A stretch of DNA of 64,000 nucleotides, taken from Naegleria gruberi (taxonomy: Eukaryota). Under the pieces are notes generated by a model, which made no database searches, had not been told where the DNA came from, and was given only the letters and a program-made list of their open reading frames with translations. This document shows, piece by piece, positions 1,613-64,000 of the stretch. The stretch lies in assembly GCA_000004985.1 (NCBI GenBank), contig GG738859.1. One strand, 5' to 3'. The translations under genes were made by a program, and so were the position numbers. The first letter of the stretch is position 1; each line of letters starts with the position of its first letter.

Positions 1613-3703
1613 TCAGTTTTCTTCATCACTCATGGTACCATGTTGTTCTTTTGTTAATACTTGATGATCTTGTTCCTCTTCTTGCTCTGACTCATCCTGT
1701 TCTGATCTATCCTTAGTATCTGAAAAGACATAGAGTATGTGACACTCTCCACGACCAATATTTTTCATACTATATGAATTGAATGGTGGAATATGAATTA
1801 CAGATCCAAGTTTCATTTGGATGGCTGGGTTTGTATGTACAACGACGGATGCCTGACCTTTCAAAATATATAAAACCTCAGATTGGGTACTAGTATTGGA
1901 GCTTGGTTTTATACCACCAGGTTGAATTATTATTGTTCCTACACCTACACCCTTCTCTGTCAATGAACTGTAGATTGAAAGTTGTGCTGTATCTTCATTA
2001 GCTTTGATGGTAGCATAACCACCAGCCTTAGTTTCATCCTTTCTGAATTTGAAATGTGAACTTTGATGCATTTGGGCAGTAGCATAAATTTTAACATCCT
2101 CCTCTTCGCCAAACTCATTCATAACTTTGTAGATTCCATCAGTTACATCACTAAGTGGATCAACTTTTCTCTTTCTTGGCTCTACAGGAGCCTTCTTCTT
2201 CTTTTCTGGTTCTGTAACAACTGGTTTGACTTTCATTAGTTTACCAGCTTCCTTAGGCAAAGGTCTTTCATTTTCCCAAAATTTACATGGTTTAGTGACC
2301 TTTCTTCTCAATCTAGAATCCACAGAGTTACTTGTTTGAATGCCCAATGGATCTGTTCCATTATCAACATCCTCATTTTGAGTGCTGATAAGTGTTGTAT
2401 TGAGCATATCATTTTCTTCTTCATTTTCACTAACAGCAGCATTGAAATCTTCGTCGTCTTTGTAAACCTTTTCATTCACTTCTTTGGCTTCCTCGTCGTC
2501 TGTTTCATCTACATTTTCTATATCTTTTAAAAGAGCTTCTCTGAGTACATATTTTTCTCCAATCAGCTCTGTTTGCTTTTGGGAAAGTTTTACTTCTTCA
2601 TCACGATAAAAGTCTCGCCCTAAATCCACATTAGATTTTTCCAGCTGAGTAGGTCCAATACCAGAGTCCTCTAGTGTTGCTTTCGGTTGAGAAGATTTAT
2701 CAGATTCGTATTCAGATTCTGATTCAGGTTCTGATTGAGGAAGCGATGCAGGGAAACTTTTAAGTGCTTGTTTTTGTTGCCTAGATTTTAAACTTCTTCT
2801 ATTTTCTCTGTCATCTGATTCATCGTCATCTTGTTCTTCCTCAGAGGATGAGGATTTCTCATAAATATATTTCTTTGTTTTCCTAGGTTCTGATATCTTT
2901 CTTTTCTTAGGTTCTGGTTGGAATGTTTGTTCCTCCTGCTCTTCAAAAAGATTATCGAATGCATGATCATCATCTAAGCCTCCTTGTTCAATATCAAATG
3001 TAGGTGTAGGTGTAGGAGGTGCAATGATATCTGCAGCTTCTGCTGGTTGTTCTTCTTCCCTGAAGGTGTCTAGAACTGGTGAAACAGGTGGTAGGGATAT
3101 TTTAGGTGAATCGGGTTTCTTAGGTTGCTTAATTGTGACAGTTGGTATTTTCACAGAAGTGTCATCCTCGGAAGATGATGTGACATACTCCATTGAAGTT
3201 TTATCAATTTTAAGAGCTTCATCTGGAGATTGTTCATCACCTGATGAACGAAAAGTAACAGCTGTCTTTGAGCTTAGCATACTCATGGTATCATCACTAT
3301 CATTCATAGTAATGTTTGATAATGACAATACACTCGATTGGTCATCTCTATGTAATTGTTGATTAAAGTTCTGATTATTGTTTGCTTCAAAGAAGGCATT
3401 CGGATCAACAGAGTCGGTATTTACAATTATTTGTCCAGATCTTTTACCAATATTTTGGAAAGCATTCTGTGATGCCAACACATCATCATAACCTTCTCTT
3501 TGGCGGGTTCGTGGAATATAACCAGTACCTTCTCTTGTTTGTAAGGCTGATCTTCTAGGTGCTCTTTCCGCAAATAGTGCTGCTGTTAATGATGCAGATG
3601 GTGGTCCCATTATTGGTGGTTGTTGGTTGTTGGCATTTGATGATGATGGTTGTTGGTTACTATTTGATGCCGAAGGGAAACCATCTTGTCTTTCATTATT
3701 CAT
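1613..3703 (-). CDS. CENP-C/Mif2-like kinetochore protein: long disordered acidic/Ser-rich region, CENP-C motif, C-terminal cupin domain
   Basis: ATG at plus 3701-3703; the track start 3718 is TTG. A CENP-C-like motif SRLRRKVTKPCKFWENERP lies at about 2215-2325. The C-terminal cupin-like block is IYATAQMHQSSHFKFRK...GYATIKANEDTAQLSIYSS...GTIIIQPGGIKPS...VLYILKGQASVVVHTNPAIQMKLGSVIHIPPFNSYSMKNIGRGECHILYV. Stop is TGA. Confidence 0.5.
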   Translation of the reverse strand: MNNERQDGFPSASNSNQQPSSSNANNQQPPIMGPPSASLTAALFAERAPRRSALQTREGTGYIPRTRQREGYDDVLASQNAFQNIGKRSGQIIVNTDSVDPNAFFEANNNQNFNQQLHRDDQSSVLSLSNITMNDSDDTMSMLSSKTAVTFRSSGDEQSPDEALKIDKTSMEYVTSSSEDDTSVKIPTVTIKQPKKPDSPKISLPPVSPVLDTFREEEQPAEAADIIAPPTPTPTFDIEQGGLDDDHAFDNLFEEQEEQTFQPEPKKRKISEPRKTKKYIYEKSSSSEEEQDDDESDDRENRRSLKSRQQKQALKSFPASLPQSEPESESEYESDKSSQPKATLEDSGIGPTQLEKSNVDLGRDFYRDEEVKLSQKQTELIGEKYVLREALLKDIENVDETDDEEAKEVNEKVYKDDEDFNAAVSENEEENDMLNTTLISTQNEDVDNGTDPLGIQTSNSVDSRLRRKVTKPCKFWENERPLPKEAGKLMKVKPVVTEPEKKKKAPVEPRKRKVDPLSDVTDGIYKVMNEFGEEEDVKIYATAQMHQSSHFKFRKDETKAGGYATIKANEDTAQLSIYSSLTEKGVGVGTIIIQPGGIKPSSNTSTQSEVLYILKGQASVVVHTNPAIQMKLGSVIHIPPFNSYSMKNIGRGECHILYVFSDTKDRSEQDESEQEEEQDHQVLTKEQHGTMSDEEN

Positions 3704-4036
3704 TTTTGAATTATTCAACTGTTATTACTATTAAATATTTGTTGATGAGTTATATGTTGTCGATGTTTGATGATTCTCAAAACACCCAATACTAACGACT
3801 AACTTGGGATTGGAGTGGTTTTAAACGAGCAACACGCGTAGATTTGCACAATTTAAATATTTTTTTCAAATTTGTAACGGTAAATAATAATTGCCAATTG
3901 TGTTAAATACTAATAATATTATTGTTTTGAATTATTACTTAAATATTCGTTTTATTTTATAATAAACAATAATTTACATTTCTAACATTAACTTCTTGCG
4001 TTGTCAATAATATTATTATTTGAAACAGTCTAAAAA

Positions 4037-5214
4037 ATGATCTCATCATCAAATGCAAAAAACGAAGATAGTGCCTCTTCGGAACTTCCTCTCCCAACAC
4101 CATCATTAGATTCATCATTCAAAAAGAAGGTTGTGGAGAGAAATTGGCTCAACCAAGAATCTGAAGGAATTGATGCTTTAGCAAAGATTGAATTTCTTCA
4201 TACAATTCCAGGAGAGAAACAATTAAAATTTGTACCAAGTGTAAAGGGCATATTAACCAATGCTGTTCACAAAATGGCACTTCAACTCACTCAACAACAG
4301 GATGAAATTATCAATGAAGCAATGAATTTTTCTGCAACTAGTTTGATTACACAAAGTGGATCTAAAGCCATGCTCATGTCAAATGCTGTTGGAGCTGCGG
4401 AAGAACAACACAGAGGATCAATATTTGTTAGTTTGAGTAATGCATCTGATTTTGATCCGAATATGGGATTTGATGCTATTAAATCCAAGTTAACAAAGAC
4501 TAATAGTATTATCACAAAGGATATTCAGGAAATGTTTTTAAAATCAATTCCTCCTTGGAATTTTGTTACACCACACCATAACTGGAAAGTAAGACTACAT
4601 GGAGATAGAGCTGTTGGTAAAACAACTTTACAGAAGAGTCTTTGTAGAATGGGTAAGTGAAATAATTTTATTGTCAAATTTTTGACATTTGAAAGATACC
4701 AATATTGAACAACACAGAAATCAACATTGTGATACTGTTGGATCAATTACAACAAATACATTAATACCAATCAAATGTATTGATTCTGTGAAATGGATAG
4801 AGCTAGAAGTGATCGATGTTGGTGAAGGATGTGCTATCAATAATCCAATTTATAATTCATGTAAGTAATTTATATTAAGAATATCACTAATATACTTTGT
4901 TGGATCTATAACCAGACAATGTTAATGATTTTCATGCCCATCTAGTCTTATTTTCCATGGGACATTTTCAAAGCTTCAAGAATGCCAAAAACAAAATCAA
5001 ACAATTGAAAAAACAAACCAACAATATTATAGTTGTTGCAACTAAATCAGATGCTTTCCAAAATTTCCAAGTTACAGACATTGACATTGCCACTCTAGTG
5101 AAGGAATTTGATTTAAAGACTGCAGTATGTCTAGTCAATAGTCATGCTCAATTCGGATCTGAAAATAGTACCTATACCATTGTGGAAGAGTTGGCCGACT
5201 TACTTTTGGCCTAA
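4037..5214 (+). CDS. atypical small GTPase-like protein with ~175-aa N-terminal extension; 3 exons (4037..4652, 4696..4860, 4946..5214)
   Basis: Introns of 43 nt (gtaagtgaaat...tttgaaag) and 85 nt (gtaagtaattt...cactaat...catctag) restore one frame. G-motifs present: G1 GDRAVGKTT, G3 DVGEG, G4 TKSD (for NKxD), G5 NSHA. The track shows the exons as separate ORFs 4037..4660 and 4957..5214. Confidence 0.5.
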
Positions 5215-5323: not shown

Positions 5324-8300
5324 ATGCCACCATCACGATTTAGAAAGGTAATTGAGGATGATGAAGAGGAAATTCCTACTACAAGAGAGGATGTGGAGAG
5401 TGAACAAATCAAAGGTAGGAAAACTGAGAAGAAAGGAGGAATCAAAAGGAAAATTGTAGAATCTGATGATAGTAGTAGCAGTGAAGATGAGTTGGACGAA
5501 AGGCTTGAGTTGACTGATGAAGACGATATCGAATCTCTTTCTTCCAGAGATTCACCTGTGGTAGAATATGATGACAATGATGAGGAGATGGAAGAATATC
5601 CACAGTATAATAGATTATTGGAGAGTAAGTTTGCATACTAGCAATTCATATAAAATCTCTTATATTCAAAGTTGAAAAGGCTATTCTTGATAAACTTGAA
5701 GGAAGGTCTTGTGATCAGCAATTGATAATTCACTCCATTGAGATGAAAAATTTCAAATCATACAAGGATAACACACTGGTTGGTCCTTTCACCACTGGAT
5801 TAAATTGTATCATTGGATCTAATGGATCTGGAAAGAGTAATATTATCGATTCGATTTGTTTTGTGCTTGGATTTGAGTCTAAAGAGTTAAGAGCTAAGAA
5901 TCTAGACTACCTCATCAATGATCAGTGTTCATCTGATGAAGAGTCATTTGTCAAAATCAACTTTAATGTGATGAATGGTAAGAATGATTGTTTCAAGCAG
6001 TTTAGTATTCAAAGAAAGATTAAAAGAAATGATCACACAAGCTCCTACCATCTCTCTTCACCAAATGAGGAATCCAAAAAGATAACAAAAAAACAAGTGA
6101 GGGAATTACTGAATGAGTATGGAATTGACTTTGATTATCCTGATAGATTTATTGTTATGCAACATAATACCATAAAGATGGTAAAGCAAAACCCTTTAGA
6201 AATGCTGTTCCATCTTGAAAAATTATTTGGTACTGATAGAGTTCAAATTGAAATTAAGCAAGTTCAGGAAGATATTACAAAGCTCAGATCCGATATTGAA
6301 ATACATGAGAAAGAAAAGAATGATTGTGAAAAGGATCTAGAGTTATTAAAACCTATAGTCGAACACTATCAAAACTTTCAAAAGTTAGAAAAAAAGGTGG
6401 AGGAGACAAAAGCATCCATAAAAGAGAGTGAGCTGAAATGCCTAACATTCAAACTAGACAAAAGCAAGAGGGAGCTAAAGTCAATTACTTCTGAAATATC
6501 TTCTTTAGAAAGTAATCGTTCAAACTCAAAGATAGAAGAACAGCAACTGAATGAAAGTACTCAGAAACAAGTAGAGAAAATGGACACCACAGAAAAGGAA
6601 CTAGACCAGATAAAGAAAGTCACATCCAAGATTCAAAAGAATCTACTGAGGGTAAGACTTGAGAATGATTCCTACAATCAAAAAGTTCAGCACTTTGAAA
6701 TGGAATTAGAAAGAACCTCAAAGGAGTCTATTCAATTAGGAGAGGAAAAGAACGATTTGAATGTAATGAATTGTCATACAGAGGAAGATATTAAGTATTT
6801 AGAGAATTGCATTAACAGTCTTGAAAATGAGATTAATAGATTGACATCAAACATAGATGATGAATCTCAACAAATATTGATAGATTTGCAAAGAGAATTA
6901 AACGAGATAGTAACAAGTTATCGTTATACAGCATTAACATCTCGTAGTGTTAAATTAAGGGAATTGGAGGAGCAGATCGAAATTTTGAATCAAACATTTG
7001 ATCAAAAACAAAAAGAGAAAGTGGGCTTAGAAAATTATATGGAAGAAATTTCTGAATTGAAGAAATTAGCAGACTCAGAAGCCAGCATATTAGGAGATAA
7101 CTTGAAGAGAGTCCAAGAATCAATAGAACTCAAAAAGAAGCAGAGAATCAAGATAGAAGATGAAATATTTGACTTAGAAACATCCTCGATTCAAAAAGAG
7201 GAAGTTAATTCTCTTTTTTTAGATACCATAAAGAAAATTAGATCAGGGATAGATGGATGTTTTGGAACAATTCCAGAGATTTATAGAATCACTGATCAGA
7301 AATATGCAGTTTCCGTAAACTCAGTGCTTCATCCTTATTTAAAGAATACAGTAGTTGTTTCAAGCAGAGAAGTGGCATTGAAGGTAGTGAAGTTTTTTGA
7401 AAATGATCGTGCAGGATTGGTCAGTTGTGAAATTCTAAATGAGCTGAAGTTGTTGCCAAACCAATCCAGCACTAATCCTTTAGAATTGAAGCCACTTATT
7501 GAAGTTCTGGAATGTGAGGCTCAATACAGACCCTTACTAGAAAAGCACACCCAAGGATGGTTCATTACTGATTCGATAGAATGTGCAATGAAATACTCAT
7601 ATCATAACGGCAAAAGAAGAAATATTGTTACTCTCGATGGAAAGATATTTAAAAGCTTTGGAGAAATATCTTGCCACTATTCCAAAGATACTACCCCTCA
7701 CCAGATCAGTACTCAGTATTCTAAACTCAATACAAATTATTCAGATCATAACAAAGACATTGAGTATTTGTCTATTTTGAAAAAAAAGTTTAAAGATCTA
7801 GAGGAAATATGTGAAAGTCTCATCATGTCAATGAATGACATTAAGCAATCCATATCAGAAAAGGAAGTATTAACAAGAAATTATCAATCCCAAATCAAAA
7901 AAATTGGCTCTTCACTCTCAACTCTTTCCAGAAAATTGATATCTATCAAGAAGGATTTAGAGAGCAAACAGGAAACCTTCAAAAATACTATTTTAGCTCC
8001 AACTGAGGAAGCAGAGTTATTAGAAATAGAGACAATCAAGAAAGAATTAGAAATGAAAATCCATACTATTGAGAGTGTCGATAACAGTGGAAATTCATTG
8101 CCGAACCTCAAGAAAACCTTGTCAGAAAAACAAAAGGAGCATACTGTACTCAACAAGTTAAAAGAAACACAAAGCAAGAGATTGAATCAAATATCAGCTC
8201 TATTATCAAACCTTGCAGCAAAAAGAGAAAAATACACTAATGAATTAGATATTTTCAGAAAAGAAAACAATCAAGAGGAATTAGATTCATTAGAATCAGA

Positions 8301-9204
8301 AGTAGACTCTCTGAAAAGGCAAAAAGGTAAACTCGAATCAAAAAAAGAGGATTATTGTAACAAATTAAAAGAATTCAGACGAAACATTAAAAAATTAAGC
8401 CAAATAATTAATGAGAAAGACCTTCAAATCTCTAGAAAAGTGCAAGATAAGGAAAAAATCCAAGAGGATATCGACGAGCTAAAGTTGTCCATTTCTAAAA
8501 TAGCACAAAGTAATATCTCTTTGAAAGTAGACACAAAACTAGACTTGGAATTAGAGGAAAGGAGAAGGCTCAAACTGATATCTGAGCTCAAGCACATAAA
8601 TTCAGAACTGGAAGGTATACAAGATAGTGTGGATAAAAATTGTTTAGAAAAACAATCAACAGCCAAGAAAAAGCTGAAATTCACTAATAAGAGGCTCAAT
8701 AGTATCAATCAAAGAATTGAGAGCCTCGAACTATTGGAGTCAAAATTTCTTACCTTACGATATGAATTGTTTCACAAGGTTATTTCCAAAATTAATGAGA
8801 ACCTCTCTCAAATATTCAGAGATTTGAATAACAACTCAAACTGCTACATTTCTTACTATGAAGACAAGAAGACATTATTTGAAAAGGGTGTCAATATTTA
8901 TTGCAAGTACGATTCAGAGTGGAAAGAGTTTAGTAAGCTGTCTGGTGGTCAGAAAAATCTGGTTTGTTCTGTTCTTTCTAAAGCGCTAATGAGATGTTTT
9001 TCAACCAGTATTTGTATCTTTGATGAATTATGTAGCAGTTTAGACACCATCAATGTAGAGAAATTAGCCAAGCTCATCAAAAGCAGCTCTCTCAAAACTC
9101 AGTTCATTTGCATATCATTCAAGTTTTACGAGAAGGCAGATCATATCATTGGAGTATACCACCAAAATGGTGTTTCTTGTACTGTCCCATTCTCTAATAA
9201 ATAG
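5324..9204 (+). CDS. SMC-family ATPase, condensin type (SMC2/SMC4-like), with probable acidic N-terminal exon (5324..5624) joined by a 47-nt intron (5625..5671) to the main exon (5672..9204)
   Basis: Main exon: LIIHSIEMKNFKSYKDNTLVGPF...CIIGSNGSGKSNIIDSICFVLG (Walker A). Long coiled coils. Hinge: GTIPEIYRITDQKYAVSVNS...VVVSSREVALKVVKFFENDRAGLVSCEIL. C-terminal LSGGQKNLVCSVLSKAL...ICIFDELCSSLD (signature plus Walker B). The first ATG in the main frame (5743) would remove the conserved N-terminal strand, arguing for the spliced 5' exon MPPSRFRKVIEDDEEE...YNRLLE (acidic, as in SMC4 N-extensions). The track start 5722 is TTG. Confidence 0.55.
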
Positions 9205-9207
9205 AAT

Positions 9208-12200
9208 TTATTGTACATTAGTTAGTAAATCCCTGATGTTGTACTTCAAGGAGAACAGGTTTTGTTTGTTCTCTATTAGCAAACCAAGACCATCCACCCA
9301 ATTATTGTAATCTCGCTCATCAAAAGTAACAAATTCCATCTTTTTCTTATCAGTAATAATTATGAGCGAGAATCCACCTTCAAGATTTTTGTTAGTTGAT
9401 TCTTTGCTCTTGGAAACCTTGTCAATATGTTCAACCTTCAAAAACGATTCTGGAACTTTCTTCTTATTGTCTCTTATTAATATTCTCGTAAACTCCTGCG
9501 ATAAGCATACGTGCCTTAATACATATTCCGTATTGGACTTTTTCTTATGCAATAGGGTACCATTACACATGAACTGGAATTTATCCAGAACAAATTGAAC
9601 ATCCTCCTTACTCAAAGGTTTTGAATTTGGCCCAAACAATTTATATTGTTTGGATGCCAATAATCTTGAAATGTTTGATGAGGCAACACCAACAACACCA
9701 CCATTTGATGGATTAGCAACGGTTGTGTTGGTAGAGGTATTGGTAGGCTTTTTAGGTGTTGTGGTTTGAGGAGCTTTTTGAGTGGTTTCAGTTGTGACAG
9801 GTGTTTGATCCTTTGTTATTTCTGGCTCATTTTCATATTGTTCTTCCTCACTACCCTCCAGTGAATTATTTGAGTTTTCAAGAGTATGATCATCATTCTC
9901 GTGTCCCTCGTTTTCTCTCTCTGCTAAATCTGTATAGAAATCTTCATCAAAGTCCTCTAAAGAATTAGGATCCTTATTTCTCATATACATGCTATAGTAA
10001 CCACTCTTAGAAACTGGAGGAGGATTTGATTTCTCGTTCTTACTTGGCTTGATCGATCTCATTATAATATCTGCCCCACTGTTCTTCACATTTTCTACTG
10101 CTTGTAATTTGAGCTCCAATCTATGTCTTAAATGTTGTCTCTGAGCTCTTACTTGTGATATTTTGCCTGTATATGATGCCTCGATATCTTCTAAGTTCTT
10201 CTTCATGGCAGCAAGTTGTTTCTTGAGTGTCATTGTTGAATTTGTCAAGTTATTTAATTCTTTCTCTATCACAGAAATACTCTTTTCCAAAGGTTTAGTG
10301 ACTGAATCATAATCAGCAATAGTTTCTTTTACATCCTCCTCTATTATAGCTAAAAGGTTATCAATTTCTTGAACTCTTGTTTCTATTGAGACTTTTTCTT
10401 TTGTAATTTCACTTTCGAATTGTTTCTCTTGATTTGCAAGACTTTCAATTTCCCTTTCAAGGTTTTCTTTTTGGTTTATCATTGAATCAATTTCTTCGTT
10501 CGCTTTTTCTAACTCATCCTGCTTTTCTATTTTTTGTTTGTTGATTACCTTGACTTGGCTTTCAACATTATTGCTGGCATCAACATATTGAGAAACCTTG
10601 TCACATTTGCTTGTATCTACAATTCTTTGGATAACATCTTTGATTTGATAATAAGATCCAACCAATGCCTCACACCTAACAAATCTTTCCTCTGTTAATT
10701 TCATTTCATCATCTGTGCAATTCTCGATTTTATCTGCCACTTGTTTCTCAACTTCCTCTTTCTCCTTGTTATAACTCTCTTCGATTTCGTTCAATTGCGA
10801 AACAATTGATTCTATTTCTTCGTCACACTCTTGTCTATCTCTGATTAATCCTCCTATTTGTTGCTCTAATTCACTGACAATATTTGAAAAATGACCAAGT
10901 CTTTCTAATTCTCCCCTTTTTCGCTCTGAGTTTTCCCGCTCAACTTCTCCAATTGAGGATGAGGATATCTTTTCTTTGGCAACCTCGACCAACTTTTTAT
11001 CTTTCTCAAGTTTATCCCTTATCATGGAAATGTACTCTTCTCTTTCCTTTGATCTCTTTCTCTCAATGTCTATAAATGATTTAGATTGGTTAATATAGAG
11101 TTTCTTGAATGTATTGACTATAGACTCATATGGCAATTTGAAACCGATTTGATCAAATTCTATTGCTTCCCCAAGAAAATTGGCATTGAATGAATCAACA
11201 CACTGTCTTAGTTGTTGGAAATCAAGTTCTTCAGAAGAAAGTTCTAAAGCATGAGCAAGAATAGCCTCTGTTTCCTCTATTTCAATAGACATGGTATGTA
11301 CATAATTCTCAAGAGCTGAGAGTTTTCTCAATTCATTTTGAAGGTTTTCAATCCCGCTCTCCTTCTTGGATACATATTCTTGTTTTGCAGATAGGTTCTC
11401 TTGCTCCAATTCCTCAAGAATGATCCTCTTTTCGTCTATTAACTCACAAACTTCTTGTCTCTTAGATTCTGCATATACTTTCTTGGAATTAAGCTCGTCT
11501 ACAGCTCTATTATATTCAAACTTCAAGTCTATCAGAAATATCTCTAAAGGAAACTTTTCTCGTAATCTTTCTGTCCTTAAATAAATTTCTTTTTCTCTCC
11601 TTATTAATGTTGTGAGATTCTTTTTTTGGTCATCAGTCAATGTAGATCCTTCCAAAATCATTGAATTAGTTGATATTTGGGCTAACCACTCTGATTCATC
11701 ATTCTCCAGCTCTTTCAGATAACAATCAATGTCACTAATTTTGCTTGCAATCCTCTCAATGGTTGCATTAACTTCTATTAGCTGGTCTCTCTTTTGAATC
11801 AATTTGTCATCAACAGGATTTCTCCTTAAATCTGTTGGGATAGATAGGAGTGAATCCCTCTCTTTGATTAAATTGTTCTTTTTTTGCTCGTTTTGGATTA
11901 TTAGGTCTTTCAATTTTTTCTTTTCTCTTGTTAAAATCTTCAACTCTTTATCTTGTTTTTTCTGTAAAGTGTCAATCTTTAAATACATATTTTCGAGAGA
12001 GGTTTGTTTTTCCTTAATAATTATCTTTTCTTTTTCACATTCTTCTCTCTTTTGATTTTTGATTTCTCTTTCTTTTTGATCAAAAATTGAGATGGCTTTT
12101 TCAATCTTAGAAATTTGAGAGCTAACATCCTCTAACCTGTCGCTAACTAGTCTTTGTCTGTCTAATTCTAATGGGTTGTGGTCTGGTTGTGGGGCTATTT

Positions 12201-20885: not shown

Positions 20886-23521
20886 ATGTCGTTTTTAAAT
20901 CCTCCAGAGATGTCAATTATTGTTACTCCAAGTTTAGATGAAATAGAACAGAGTGATTTGGAGAGGAAACAATTGGAGCAAGAGGAAATTGAAGCTGAAC
21001 GACTTCTTCCCGAGAGTTTTGATTTCACCAAGCTGAAGAAGCAATTATCATCGGAAAATATTGCAAAGAAATCCTTCACTGTGGATCCTGAGCAATTGAT
21101 AAACACTGTAACAATGTTACTTGAGACAGTGGAAAAGCAGGAAAAGAATATAAGGTCACTAGCAAAAGCAGTCGCTCAAAAAAGCGATTTTTCATTGAGC
21201 AGGCAGTCATCATTTAATACCGGTGTTATGATTACTGATCCACCAAAGAAGGATCTTCCATCCTCCAGACCAACCACTCCAAAAGTTGTACATAAGGAAA
21301 CTGTTTTTGTGAGGGAGGATGATCCTTTTATGAAGAACCAAATCCATAATTTAAACAATGAGTTTGCTATAATTCAAGAGGAATATACTCAACATGAAAC
21401 AAGACTCACAGAAGTCGAGGCTATTGTTCATGAACAATTAACAGAGGAGAAAATGAAAACTGAAAAGAAAATTGATGAAGCTAAAGAAATGATTACAGTA
21501 CTCAAATTTGACAAGGAGGAGTTGAGAAAACAAATGGATCAATTGAGACTGGATGTAAAAAAGGGATTGGAGGAAAATATTGAGTTTTTATCAAACGAAA
21601 TCAAGACACATTTTGATATTTCGAATGAAAATTTAGAAAGGCTTCAAGATGATTACAACCAAAAAATATCAGCCGTAAATTCTGACTTGGGATCCAAAAT
21701 TGTGGACATATCAAATAAGGTGGAATATAATTTTATGATATTTAAGGAACGAACGGAATCTCAAAAAAATGAAATTGAAGAACTAAAGTTCAGACTGACG
21801 AAACTGGAAGAAAATTTACTGAAAAAGATGGAAACCTTGTCAGATAAAATGGATAAGAATTTTCGATTACTGGAGAAGGATACCCTGAAAACTAACTACA
21901 TAACCAATCTGTTGTACGACGTATTTCAGCTGGATAAACATCTAATCACTGACTTGAATGATACATATGTACAGGAAAAGTTTCAAGCTAAGGAAGATAT
22001 TGGAAAATATTCCAAAATGAAAAAGGAGAAGAACAGACAAGAGTACAGAAAGATGTATACAGACATGTTAATGACCACTCCATGTTTTAAAACAATATAC
22101 GACAATTCCACAAACATTGTAAACGAGTTGAGATGGGAAACCAAATTAAGAATGGACAGAGAGGGTGACAAGGTGTTAGAAGAGTTTACTGATATTCGAG
22201 AATGTATGAAACGGTTTGTGACATTTCCAGAAGTGCGAGCAGCAATTAACGAGAATGAAATAGTGAGACAAGTAGTCAATACTGTGGGTACTCATGAAAA
22301 ACATATTGATACAATATTTACAAATTTTTTACCGAGAGAAGAGGCTTGGGAAGCCCTCAAACAAAAAGCAGATGAAAAGAATGTAGAGTTGAAAGCTGAT
22401 CGAAAGATTGTCAATGCTCTATTTGACTATTTGAACGAGAAATTGAATACTATTCTTGGGAAAACATCTACAGAAGAAATGATGGTATCTATTAAAAAGC
22501 TTGAAGAGAAAATCAAAAGTAAGGCAGATAAGCAGGAACTTATAGAAGCCCAGCAACCAATTTACCCTCCAAATATAATTAATATCGTGCGAAAGGATAT
22601 TTCTACAGAGGATCTAGTGGTAGGAATGGGTGTGAGTCAACCATGTCTCATGGCAAAAGGAGAATCCGAACAAAGTCACTCCAGTTCGTACAGATGCCTT
22701 AGTTGCAGTCGACCACTCTCTTCCAAAACGCCTTCAACAGCACCATCCGGTTCTCCTCCAAAAAGACAAAACTATTTAACTAACTTTGATCCTCTTCCTG
22801 TTCAAGCCTTAAGTGGAAATGAATCTGCTAGAGGAAAGTTGGGAACTACGTTGGGAGATCTTCAACAACAATTTCAACAACAACTTCAATTACAAATCAA
22901 TCCAAACACTAGCATTCAATCTGATAGTCCAAATACAAGTCCAAAGAAGGGAGAAAAAGAAAAACCAAACCTTATTCCACCAAGTAGCCCATCTGACTTT
23001 TTCGAAATACCCAAACTAAATTTGAAAAAAGTAATGATATCTGCAGAGTAAGTTTCTTAACACATTTTAAACTCTTACATTTAACAAGAATGGAAAATCC
23101 AATCTTTAAATATACTATTAAGAGCTCAGGTCGAAGTGCAGAAGAAGAATATGAAATGGTATCAGCAAGACGAGACAATACTGACCTTGATAAACCTCCT
23201 TCACAACTTCAAAATCAAAGAAAATCTCCAGACGATATGAGACCTAAACCACCAAAGAGTGCACCTCAAGGAGGGCAGAATAATTTTATGAGATATTCTC
23301 TGAAGAGTAATTTGGATCTTTCGAATAAAGTGCCAGGAACTGCAAGAGAAAAAGAACAGGAGAAAACATCTTCAGTAATGCCACACTCTGCAAGGCCAAA
23401 TTCTGCTAAAGAGTACAGGCTGAGAAGGAATGAAGGTCCTATACTTGTTGTAAAGCCAGCAACTGCAGCTCTGAAAAATAGACTCCCAAAGCTAAATGCA
23501 AGTCAAGCTTTAATTAAATAA
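20886..23521 (+). CDS. coiled-coil protein (~864 aa); 2 exons (20886..23047, 23089..23521) joined by a 41-nt intron
   Basis: ATG 20886. The 721-aa track ORF ends ...MISAE at a TAA that lies inside a gtaagtttcttaacacattttaaactcttacatttaacaag intron (23048..23088). Splicing gives ...MISA-E-MENPIFKYTIKSSGRS... in frame with track ORF 23090..23521. The middle is heptad-rich. There is a Cys cluster YRCLSCSRPL. No family assigned. Confidence 0.45.
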
Positions 23522-62811: not shown

Positions 62812-64000
62812 TTATTGAAAATGTGAAGGGTACTTTGCCAAATAGGATTGAAGTGATTCTTGAATTTCATCAGTAAGTGATTCAAGTAGAATTTTTTTCT
62901 GTTCTCCAGATTCCATATTCTTAATTGAAATTTTACCTCCCTTCAATTCATCCTCTCCAATAATAATTGTGAGGAGTGATTTACTTTGTTGGGCTTGTTT
63001 CAATTGTTTTGATAAATTTCCCTTCTCAAAATAATTGATTGTAATGCCTTGTTTACGTAATTGTTGGGATAGAATAATAGCAAATTTAGACATTTCCTGA
63101 TCAATAGCTTCATTTGTGCCTCTGACGACTGAAACGAATACTTTTGGAATGTATTCTGGTTGAGGTTGAGTATTTCCCTTTTCCAGTTCTTCCATAATTA
63201 AGGAAAGTCTTTCAAATCCACTAGCCCAACTAGTTAGATGTTAAATTTTGAAATATTTTGTTAATATCAAAACAGAGTTAACTTACCCAACAGCTGGAAT
63301 TTGTTGATTGGCTCCTAATTGTTGAGATAATGTATCATAACGCCCACCTGCGAGAATGGTTGATTTGGCACCAATAACATTGCTCTTAAATTCAAATGTT
63401 GTATGGGTATAGTAATCAAGACCTCTAATAAGAGATGAGTTAATCTTGTATGGAATTTTCAACCATTTCAATCCTAAAAGTACATTTTCAAATCGTTTTC
63501 TATTTTCCTCACTTTGAAATTGAGCTAATTGGGGCATATCATGTTTTTCAATCAAATTTGCAATAAAATCTTCATCCTGTTTAGAGTCGAGAATTCTCCA
63601 AATTCTTCTTGGATTATTTTCTGCAATGGCAATTTCAACTCTAGCTCTACTGTCCTTTGAAAGATTTTCCTCCTGATCAAATAATTCCTTATTCTTTTTA
63701 ACATATTCTAAGAGAGCATGTTGATAATTTTCACGTTCTTTCAAAGTTCCAATAGAGTTAATTTCCAATTGAAATACATCATTTCTACCATCAAGAACAT
63801 TTGTTAAAAATTGATAAGCCATTTCCAAAGATTCCAAATCACTTTGATAATGATCACTTCCTAAATATTCCACTCCAAATTGATGAAATTGACGATATCT
63901 TCCTTTCTGTGGTCTTTCGTATCTAAACATTGGTCCATAATAGTAAATTCTTTGTTTTGTTGAGAGAGCATTTTCGATAACACTTCTCATAATTGGTGCT
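62812..64000 (-). CDS. histidyl-tRNA synthetase (class II aaRS), 5' end beyond window; 57-nt intron 63230..63286
   Basis: Upstream exon (63287..>64000): ...RIYYYGPMFRYERPQKGRYRQFHQFGVEYLG...GLDYYTHTTFEF...ILAGGRYDTLSQQLGANQQIPAVG. This is HisRS motif 2/3 (FRYE...QKGRYRQF; GGRYD). Downstream exon (62812..63229): WASGFERLSLIMEE...VFVSVVRG...LLTIIIGEDELKGGKISIKNMESGEQ is the anticodon-binding domain. The intron is gtaagttaactctg...catctaactag. Confidence 0.8.

Follow-up and report, generated by a model that had tools for sequence, protein, structure and literature searches.

A stretch of the Naegleria gruberi contig GG738859.1, 64,000 nucleotides long and here called the window, in all likelihood holds one two-exon SMC gene (5324-5624 plus 5672-9204), whose exons flank a 47-nt GTAAGT...AG intron and whose 1277-residue product would be an SMC ATPase, most probably the SMC4-type arm of condensin. 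All features of the gene lie on the plus strand. Exon 1 (5324-5624, 301 nt) carries codons 1-100, starting with Met1, and the first base of codon 101 (Ile101), the putatively spliceosomal intron (5625-5671) is in phase 1 as a consequence of this exon length and splits an ATT (Ile) codon, and exon 2 (5672-9204, stop codon included) encodes residues 101-1277, the remainder of the SMC protein. The start codon, ATG 5324 (context aaaaaaATGc), is the first ATG past an in-frame stop, 109 nt downstream of the stop codon of the upstream gene, and opens an acidic ORF (MPPSRFRKVIEDDEEE...) that runs for 100 codons before the donor. The tail encoded by exon 1 is acidic and Ser-rich, with a basic patch (KGRKTEKKGGIKRK) at 5411-5452 and a Ser/Asp/Glu run at 5459-5500.

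The donor GTAAGT (5625-5630) and the acceptor ttcaaAG|TT (AG at 5670-5671) bring this acidic ORF of 100 codons and the SMC ORF of 1160 codons into one frame, and the spliced frame shows no break until the stop at 9202-9204; frame arithmetic thus bears out the 47-nt intron of the original prediction. Without splicing, the exon-1 frame ends at a stop at 5639-5641 and the SMC frame meets a TAA at 5626-5628. This TAA lies inside the GTAAGT itself, so that the open stretch of the SMC frame begins at 5629 and not, as had been proposed, at 5614; the accompanying statement that it contains no ATG holds for 5629-5742. The first ATG of the SMC frame, at 5743, corresponds to Met125 of the spliced protein and lies, as the single in-frame ATG, inside the first β-strand of the ATPase head, LIIHSIEM, which is followed by NFKSY (5722-5763). 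As had been noted, LIIHSIEM (5722-5745) is encoded in frame upstream of this ATG, and it also runs across it; with exon 1 joined, 117 residues precede it. Alignments to solved SMC heads start at residues 116-123 of the spliced protein, with residue 4 of an archaeal SMC matching residue 120 and residue 5-6 of SMC1 matching residue 122. A start at Met125 would therefore remove the first head β-strand, just as the original prediction had argued.

Around 22 GTAAGT hexamers would be expected by chance on each strand of the window, compared to the 11 and 7 observed. Half of these 18 link two open frames, each 50 codons or longer, and have the first usable AG 39-57 nt downstream. The site at 5625 is one of them, so that the intron at 5625-5671 has eight counterparts of its class in the window, all of them GTAAGT introns that bridge ORFs and measure 39-57 nt. 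With its GT donor, AG acceptor, restored reading frame and a position conserved in a related species, it has the properties of a U2-type GT-AG intron. An alternative in-frame intron of 77 nt (5625-5701) was rejected, since the IEKAILDKLE segment that it would remove has a conserved counterpart in N. fowleri.

Support for the proposed splice at 5624|5672 comes from the N. fowleri orthologue, in which an intron interrupts the identical codon in the identical phase. The syntenic gene FDP41_000158 (KAF0985119.1 / XP_044569832.1, 'structural maintenance of chromosomes protein', 1287 aa in the annotated model) resides in a locus, L001, in which the genes for a CENP-C-like protein, a Ras-like GTPase, the SMC protein and a PH-domain protein follow each other in unchanged order and orientation. 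There, an intron of 52 nt (GTAAGT...CAG, L001 6278-6329) likewise interrupts this Ile codon as A|TT; it differs by 5 nt in length from the N. gruberi intron and has the splice signals alone in common with it. The flanks of the junction are conserved (NRLLE-I-EKAILDK in N. gruberi, RFKK-I-ERSVLEK in N. fowleri), as are the protein starts (MPPSRFRKVIEDD and MPPKKVIRDSS, respectively), which share an acidic/basic tail of the form "MPP...KVI.D", and the junction peptide is present in two N. fowleri protein records, KAF0985119 and CAG4716388.1. Between exon 1 and the N. fowleri N-terminus (MPPKKVIRD...), identity is 36% over 87 aligned residues; the local alignment score of 76, compared to 51.8 +/- 7.9 for shuffled sequences and equalled in 21 of 2000 shuffles, suggests a similarity that is only modestly significant when composition is preserved. 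Comparative evidence of this kind shows the exon-intron structure at the level of sequence, and we infer that the mRNA is spliced at 5624|5672.

Since both open frames have ATG starts, one could alternatively read them as two genes, with the 105-codon acidic ORF (5324-5641) as a separate small gene and the SMC gene beginning at ATG 5743. We consider this very improbable: the 5743 start loses a head β-strand that is conserved in every aligned SMC, the frame above it codes for conserved residues (IEKAILDK...QQLIIHSIE) exactly back to the acceptor, and the acidic ORF, for which Pfam gave no separate match, ends at most 17 nt from a consensus donor. In N. fowleri, moreover, the intron lies in the same codon and the annotated proteins join both parts. 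The single two-exon gene is also similar to its N. fowleri counterpart in domain order, in a QHNT Q-loop and LSGGQ signature, and in a C-terminal QFICISFKFYEKA.HIIGVYH motif. The two proteins are 37% identical overall, with 54-58% in the heads, 44% in the hinge and 23-24% in the coiled coils, and in the N. fowleri gene GSGK is followed by a second intron, of 47 nt, that is absent from N. gruberi.

The encoded protein has the layout of the SMC superfamily, with an ATPase head split between N- and C-terminus, coiled-coil arms and a central hinge. Pfam SMC_N matches ORF residues 3-1151 (4.8e-28), so that both ORF ends are covered. The SMC_hinge match (3.6e-10) extends over ORF residues 511-625 and places the hinge (dimerisation) domain at 7252-7596. 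All catalytic residues were found, namely the Walker A Lys (GSNGSGKS, followed by NIIDSICFVLG, 5815-5871), the Q-loop Gln (MQHNT, in the FIVMQHNT region at 6148-6171), the LSGG signature (LSGGQK) and the Walker B Asp-Glu (ICIFDE), the latter two within 8938-9045, where LSGGQK is followed by Walker B and D-loop (ICIFDELCSSLD). Not conserved are the otherwise universal Gly following the Q-loop Gln, which is replaced, and the D-loop DAALD; in the alignment, the Q-loop is additionally preceded by one extra residue plus Pro (YPDRF). These non-canonical Q- and D-loops, together with the low identity between the two Naegleria proteins, agree with the earlier description of the protein as divergent and fast-evolving.

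As to the family, an SMC4 assignment is favoured but not proven. In searches with a two-species profile of the N-terminal head, SMC4 proteins scored 105.9, 87.6 and 79.9 bits, while SMC1 reached 61-82 and SMC2 about 73; for the hinge, the values were 50 and 48.8 bits for SMC4 and 31.5-33.8 for SMC1. A profile of 11 sequences from the clade described below ranked SMC4 (303, 300) ahead of SMC1 (276, 258, 247), SMC2 (236) and SMC3 (200). All named top matches looked up from an exhaustive HMMER search are SMC4 (three by name, one by KEGG orthology), while the verified SMC1 proteins P0398 and P0400 scored below SMC4. The C-terminal head is equivocal, with its profile yielding 73.4 bits for human SMC1A, 73 for archaeal SMC and 69 for yeast SMC4. 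At the level of domain content and best-matching family, these comparisons point to an SMC4-like architecture, as had been suggested, although the call between SMC4 and SMC1 is one of score margins of approximately 25-55 bits and not of a robust tree.

A rival reading keeps the gene model, but takes the protein for SMC1, the cohesin arm, or for an SMC of no assignable family. It draws on the C-terminal head, in which SMC1 (7ogt_A, 7w1m_A), the sister kappa-SMC, scores equally or slightly higher and in which FYEKADHIIGVY aligns as similar to FYTKAESLIGVY of SMC1A; in addition, the top score in full-length single-sequence phmmer goes to yeast SMC1 (118 bits, compared to 102-105 for SMC4). We regard this reading as quite unlikely. 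With the human and with the yeast proteins, SMC4 outscores SMC1 in all three of these comparisons (N-terminal head, hinge, 11-sequence profile), and the Hemistasia member of the clade has been assigned to the SMC4 orthology. The SMC1 proteins examined also lack an N-terminal extension and begin their first strand at residue 1-6, whereas the spliced protein has an SMC4-type extension before this strand. Extensions of at least 25 residues were present in 99 of the SMC-head matches examined, none of them a verified SMC1, and 22 of these 99, mostly of the canonical SMC4 type, begin with 'MP' and then basic residues. Many SMC4 proteins have such an 'MP + basic, then acidic' tail, in keeping with the original view that an acidic N-terminal extension is typical of this family. 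Eukaryotic SMC4 (human 9f5w_B, yeast 6yvu_B) scores highest of all families with the N-terminal head, with the hinge and with the clade profile, and it resembles the N. gruberi protein in its N-terminal extension, its NFKSY...GPF motif and its full set of ATPase motifs. It differs in that the canonical LQGEV, LSGGE, DEIDAALD and ISLRNNMFE are replaced by MQHNT, LSGGQ, DELCSSLD and ISFKFYE, the last of which is two residues shorter.

In neighbour-joining trees, computed with our own implementation with bootstrap on saturated distances and thus susceptible to long-branch artefacts, the Naegleria protein was placed outside canonical SMC4, within a separate clade of 12 taxa with bootstrap values of 100 for the concatenated data, 94 for the hinge and 92 for the C-terminal head; a 99% bipartition set the canonical SMC4 group apart from all remaining sequences. 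Besides N. gruberi, this clade comprises N. fowleri FDP41_000158, P0306, P0326, P0356, P0374, P0409, P0307 of the diplonemid Hemistasia, and P0308, P0309, P0330 and P0378, the last four being intronless and encoding proteins of 1600-2100 aa. Two rare characters are common to its members, an inserted residue plus Pro ahead of the Q-loop and a Q-loop Gln that is no longer followed by Gly; the Q-loop reads Q-[HQN]-x-T, the signature is LSGGQ, and the tails are long and often start with MPR..K[LV]FE. Loci L002 (divergent type) and L003 (canonical type), compared to see whether a single organism could be the source of both, are similar in GC and codon usage, but differ in GC3. What is called 'SMC7' in Chlamydomonas proved to be an unrelated coiled-coil protein.

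These trees and the clade-wide Q-loop characters raise the question of whether the correctly modelled protein belongs to a previously undescribed paralogue family derived from SMC4, with QHNT or QQHT in the Q-loop, LSGGQ as signature and long tails at the N-terminus as its hallmarks, and coexisting with canonical SMC4 in at least some Discoba. The heterolobosean Percolomonas encodes fully canonical SMC4 (P0316, P0323), and a second, canonical SMC4 might therefore exist in Naegleria. van Hooff et al. list three SMC4 proteins for Percolomonas and two for Pharyngomonas, and set aside long-branch sequences of the SMC4 clade. However, they count exactly one SMC4 each in N. fowleri and Hemistasia and report no seventh SMC, and neighbour-joining on saturated distances is prone to just such artefacts. 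We therefore view a separate family as doubtful; if true, eukaryotes would have a seventh type of SMC, one whose ATPase cycle is modified. For Naegleria, we did not find an SMC inventory with sequence identifiers in the literature, which provides per-species counts only, including the table of van Hooff et al.

Our favoured interpretation remains that of a condensin SMC4-type (kappa) arm. Exon 1 would contribute a tail of about 100 residues, acidic and Ser-rich with a conserved basic patch, for which disorder is predicted from composition only, and splicing would set this tail directly before the first β-strand of the ATPase head, which has no ATG of its own. SMC4 dimerises with SMC2, the kleisin CAP-H bridging the two subunits, and in SMC4 tails elsewhere basic patches serve nuclear import and S-x-x-D/E sites phospho-regulation. 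We infer condensin membership and, by analogy, a comparable role for the Naegleria tail; the protein is predicted to pair with SMC2 via its hinge and to bind ATP between the two heads. For N. fowleri, van Hooff et al. list SMC2, CAP-H, CAP-G and CAP-D2.

In exact look-ups in the protein collection, the spliced 1277-aa protein, the version starting at ATG 5743 and the 105-aa ORF were all absent, and the public collection held no N. gruberi protein for this SMC gene, while five ORFs of the window were exact matches to GenBank EFC proteins, which marks the window as N. gruberi DNA. Look-ups of P0053 and P0060 for annotated N. gruberi neighbours were negative. A 39-mer spanning the spliced junction had no match in JGI metagenome contigs. 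Homologue searches by word index, with either the N-terminal 345 aa or a head-plus-hinge profile as query, missed the N. fowleri orthologue, as they apparently cover proteins of limited length only, and thus do not bear on the choice between SMC1 and SMC4; the head-plus-hinge profile did recover P0185. A scan for bacterial promoters and terminators yielded nothing above background, these models not being applicable to a eukaryote.

The 5' extension of approximately 420 bases is an ordinary gene-model correction and no new kind of system. Its main value is one of annotation: a large core gene of chromosome architecture is apparently absent from the public N. gruberi protein set, so that inventories using this set could score SMC4, and hence condensin, as missing, and a purely ORF-based gene call would yield an SMC protein with a truncated head. 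Beyond this, the altered Q-loop, which recurs in sequences of other eukaryotes, including at least one diplonemid (Hemistasia), may offer a modest lead on variation in the SMC ATPase cycle. Conservation of the 5' intron, together with a tail of the 'MP + basic, then acidic' kind, shows that the N-terminal tail of SMC4 is old and somewhat constrained, even in a very divergent lineage.

The SMC gene opens at an ATG at 5324 (context aaaaaaATGc), the first past an in-frame stop and 109 nt 3' of the stop codon of the upstream gene, in an acidic frame that begins MPPSRFRKVIEDDEEE. A GTAAGT donor at 5625-5630 (+) and an AG acceptor at 5670-5671 delimit a 47-nt intron; as exon 1 measures 301 nt, the intron follows the first base of a codon, A and TT combining to Ile101, and the joined frame has no stop until 9202-9204, yielding a product of 1277 aa. 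The original prediction had proposed this in-frame splice to the acidic ORF, and signals and frame fit, N. fowleri having an intron at the same codon and phase. It erred in taking the SMC frame to be open back to 5614, as a TAA lies at 5626-5628, within the donor itself. From 5629 to 5742 the SMC frame contains no ATG; the first, at 5743 (Met125 of the spliced protein), falls inside LIIHSIEM (5722-5745), the conserved strand that such a start had been predicted to cut. Alignments to solved SMC heads indeed begin before Met125, at residues 116-123, with residue 120 corresponding to residue 4 of Pyrococcus Smc and residue 122 to residues 5-6 of SMC1, so that a Met125 start would deprive the head of its first beta-strand. 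Splicing to another in-frame acceptor, with an intron of 77 nt, was rejected, since it would remove the conserved IEKAILDKLE.

We regard the comparative evidence from N. fowleri as decisive for the 5' intron. A full-length search recovered an N. fowleri orthologue (CAG4716388) spanning 100% of the spliced query, in a cluster that also includes KAF0985119 / XP_044569832 (FDP41_000158, 1287 aa). Its locus, L001, is syntenic with the window, with CENP-C-like (-), Ras-like GTPase (+), SMC (+) and PH-domain (-) genes in the same order. When the protein was mapped onto L001, exon 1 occupied 6001-6277 and intron 1 6278-6329 (52 nt, GTAAGT...CAG). With TT as the first bases of exon 2, this intron interrupts ATT (Ile93) after the A, at a codon and phase identical to those in N. 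gruberi. The two introns share splice signals only and differ by 5 nt in length, as expected of non-coding sequence. The proteins align from residue 1 (MPPSRFRKVIEDD in N. gruberi, MPPKKVIRDSS in N. fowleri) and across the junction (NRLLE-I-EKAILDK and RFKK-I-ERSVLEK), and a basic patch is kept between acidic, Ser-rich runs (GRKTEKKGGIKRK and KRTDKKKITIRTRKRR, respectively). The exon-1 peptides are 36% identical, with a local score of 76 against 51.8 +/- 7.9 for composition-preserving shuffles, 21 of 2000 of which reach 76; this similarity is modest by itself because the tail is of low complexity, but the alignment has an anchor at each end. N. fowleri annotation already includes this gene structure. 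The reading is correct, and amounts to a routine correction of the gene model of a divergent SMC4-type gene. A second intron (47 nt, GTAAGT, L001 6500-6546) lies directly after GSGK of Walker A in N. fowleri, with no counterpart in N. gruberi (window ~5836). Of the two N. fowleri records, P0180 contains 49 residues after Walker A (SNIIDAICFV...) that are missing from CAG4716388, probably owing to a mis-predicted splice.

Five intronless window ORFs are exact GenBank N. gruberi proteins (EFC46327, EFC46333, EFC46220, EFC46341 and a member of the EFC46222 cluster), and the EFC proteins matching window ORFs are all encoded on one 530-kb contig. For the SMC gene, searches of a 5.8-billion-sequence collection that recovered the N. 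fowleri orthologue found no N. gruberi protein, and exact look-ups of three possible products gave no match, while neighbouring genes are present as EFC entries. The public N. gruberi protein set therefore seems to lack an entry for the gene at 5324-9204. Upstream, at 4037-5214 (+), lies a Ras-like GTPase gene that encodes a long N-terminal extension and is interrupted by two GTAAGT introns (+), at 4653-4695 (43 nt), which judging from ORF translations looks common to N. fowleri, and at 4861-4915 (55 nt), which is absent there, as the N. fowleri ORF reads through (...YNSYQVNEYHAHLV...). Downstream, the SMC stop ends at 9204 and the convergent PH-domain gene (-) at 9208, leaving 3 nt between the stop codons (9202-9210), so that the two 3' UTRs must overlap. 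The protein encoded at 1613-3718 (-) is CENP-C-like, carries a cupin / Mif2 domain (PF11699, 8.9e-09) at its C-terminus and is 40% identical to its syntenic N. fowleri counterpart.

In the spliced protein, Pfam SMC_N covers both termini, the SMC hinge is also matched, and the catalytic residues are intact. Searched singly against structures, the N-terminal 345 aa matched SMC4 best (E = 8.8e-23, human; 3e-19, yeast), followed by SMC2 (1.6e-15) and SMC1 (6.5e-15); the full-length sequence scored 118 bits with yeast SMC1 and 102-105 bits with SMC4. Two-species profiles gave, for the N-terminal head, 105.9, 87.6 and 79.9 bits with SMC4, 61-82 with SMC1 and ~73 with SMC2; for the hinge, 50 and 48.8 bits with SMC4 (yeast 24.4) and 31.5-33.8 with SMC1; and for the C-terminal head, 73.4 bits with SMC1A, 73 with archaeal Smc, and 69 and 52 with yeast and human SMC4. 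When 1.84 billion representative proteins were searched exhaustively with the N-terminal head (HMMER), there were 8292 matches, the best 150 of which mostly combine an N-terminal extension with SMC4 hallmarks (L.I....NFKSYAG...GPFHK). Named matches include Steinernema, Carpediemonas and Strongyloides proteins called SMC4, a Hemistasia protein assigned to SMC4 by KEGG orthology and one from the heterolobosean Percolomonas; two matches identified as SMC1 by PDB search (554 vs 220 bits) ranked below SMC4 proteins. The predicted SMC4-like character is favoured by the N-terminal head, the hinge and the profile of the clade described below; the full-length sequence and the C-terminal head do not separate SMC4 from SMC1.

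In a neighbour-joining phylogeny of head and hinge columns, both Naegleria proteins fell inside a 12-taxon clade with P0306, P0326, P0307 (Hemistasia), P0308, P0309, P0330, P0378, P0409, P0356 and P0374 (bootstrap 100 concatenated, 94 for the hinge, 92 for the C-terminal head). A 99% bipartition split canonical SMC4 from all other sequences. The placement of the clade is unreliable, the distances being saturated, but the clade itself is supported by rare shared characters: an extra residue and a Pro preceding the Q-loop (FP[ED]RF; N. gruberi Q-loop region at 6148-6171), replacement of the otherwise invariant Gly that follows the Q-loop Gln (QHNT, QQHT, QQNT), LSGGQ, and GVYQ close to the C-terminus. 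Percolomonas P0316 and the related P0323 are instead fully canonical SMC4, with LQGEV, LSGGE and ISLRNHMF. Every clade member has an N-terminal extension, of 80-1000 residues, and several begin MPR..K[LV]FE, resembling N. gruberi MPPSRFRKVIED. An 11-sequence head-and-hinge profile scored 303 (yeast) and 300 (human) bits with SMC4, 276, 258 and 247 with SMC1, 236 with SMC2 and 200 with SMC3, indicating that the clade is SMC4-affiliated, by a margin of 25-55 bits. A relative's SMC on contig L002 (3004-3400; Logan SRR22387979, 27% GC) is also of the QHNT type; it has a short, basic N-terminus (MSALKKRKLEPN..., ~35 residues) and no acidic exon, and its N-terminal head is broken by several very short apparent introns, e.g. 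~30 nt after ...DKKFTW.

Given the canonical P0316 and P0323, Heterolobosea may hold two SMC4-type genes. L002, with the divergent type, and L003, a contig with the canonical type, resemble each other in GC content (27%) and in codon usage (r = 0.94), though not in GC3. A published census (van Hooff et al., bioRxiv 10.1101/2024.01.07.573240, Table S1) gives N. fowleri a single copy of each SMC from SMC1 to SMC6, and counts SMC4 three times in Percolomonas, twice in Pharyngomonas and once in Hemistasia; long-branch sequences of the SMC4 clade were left out by its authors. These counts favour the Naegleria gene being the SMC4 that was counted, although the table carries no sequence identifiers.

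The gene had also been predicted to evolve fast. Overall, the two Naegleria proteins are 37% identical, with 36% in the tail, 54% in the N-terminal head, 44% in the hinge, 58% in the C-terminal head and 23-24% in the coiled coils. This makes the gene a divergent one among SMCs, but no outlier for this pair of species, its syntenic neighbours being 40% (CENP-C-like), 45% (PH-domain) and 62% (GTPase exon 1) identical.

Of 99 matches whose N-terminal extension is 25 residues or longer, 22 begin with MP, in most cases with basic residues next (e.g. MPRKGTQ, MPPKKRH, MPPRRRRQ), a recurring SMC4 tail pattern that the N. gruberi exon-1 start fits. By analogy with established SMC complexes, the protein would pair with SMC2 via the hinge, engage ATP between the heads and be bridged with its partner by a kleisin. 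From its composition and by analogy with yeast and animal SMC4 tails, the tail is predicted to be disordered; its conserved basic patch may serve as a nuclear localisation signal, and S-x-x-D/E motifs at residues 19, 20, 51-53, 64 and 73 are candidate sites for acidophilic kinases.

The 5' intron is not unusual in its surroundings. GC content is 31-38% all along the window, which contains 11 and 7 GTAAGT sites on its two strands, against ~22 expected per strand. Half of these (9/18) join two open frames, each 50 codons or longer, through the first usable AG, 39-57 nt downstream: 4653, 4861, 5625, 23048, 24700 and 54123 (+), and 63286, 61120 and 32825 (-). The 47-nt intron at 5625 is typical of this class, and the GenBank-annotated intron of EFC46222 (50015-50088, 74 nt, GTTTGT...TAG) shows that introns of such size were accepted by the genome's annotators. 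Since this eukaryote has short spliceosomal introns, a bacterial-style ORF list splits its genes at them. In phase-2 introns, such as those at 23048 and 24700 (+) and at 63286 and 61120 (-), the TAA of GTAAGT is in frame and ORF calls stop at the donor, so that an ORF end at donor position + 3 is a handy intron marker in the N. gruberi genome.
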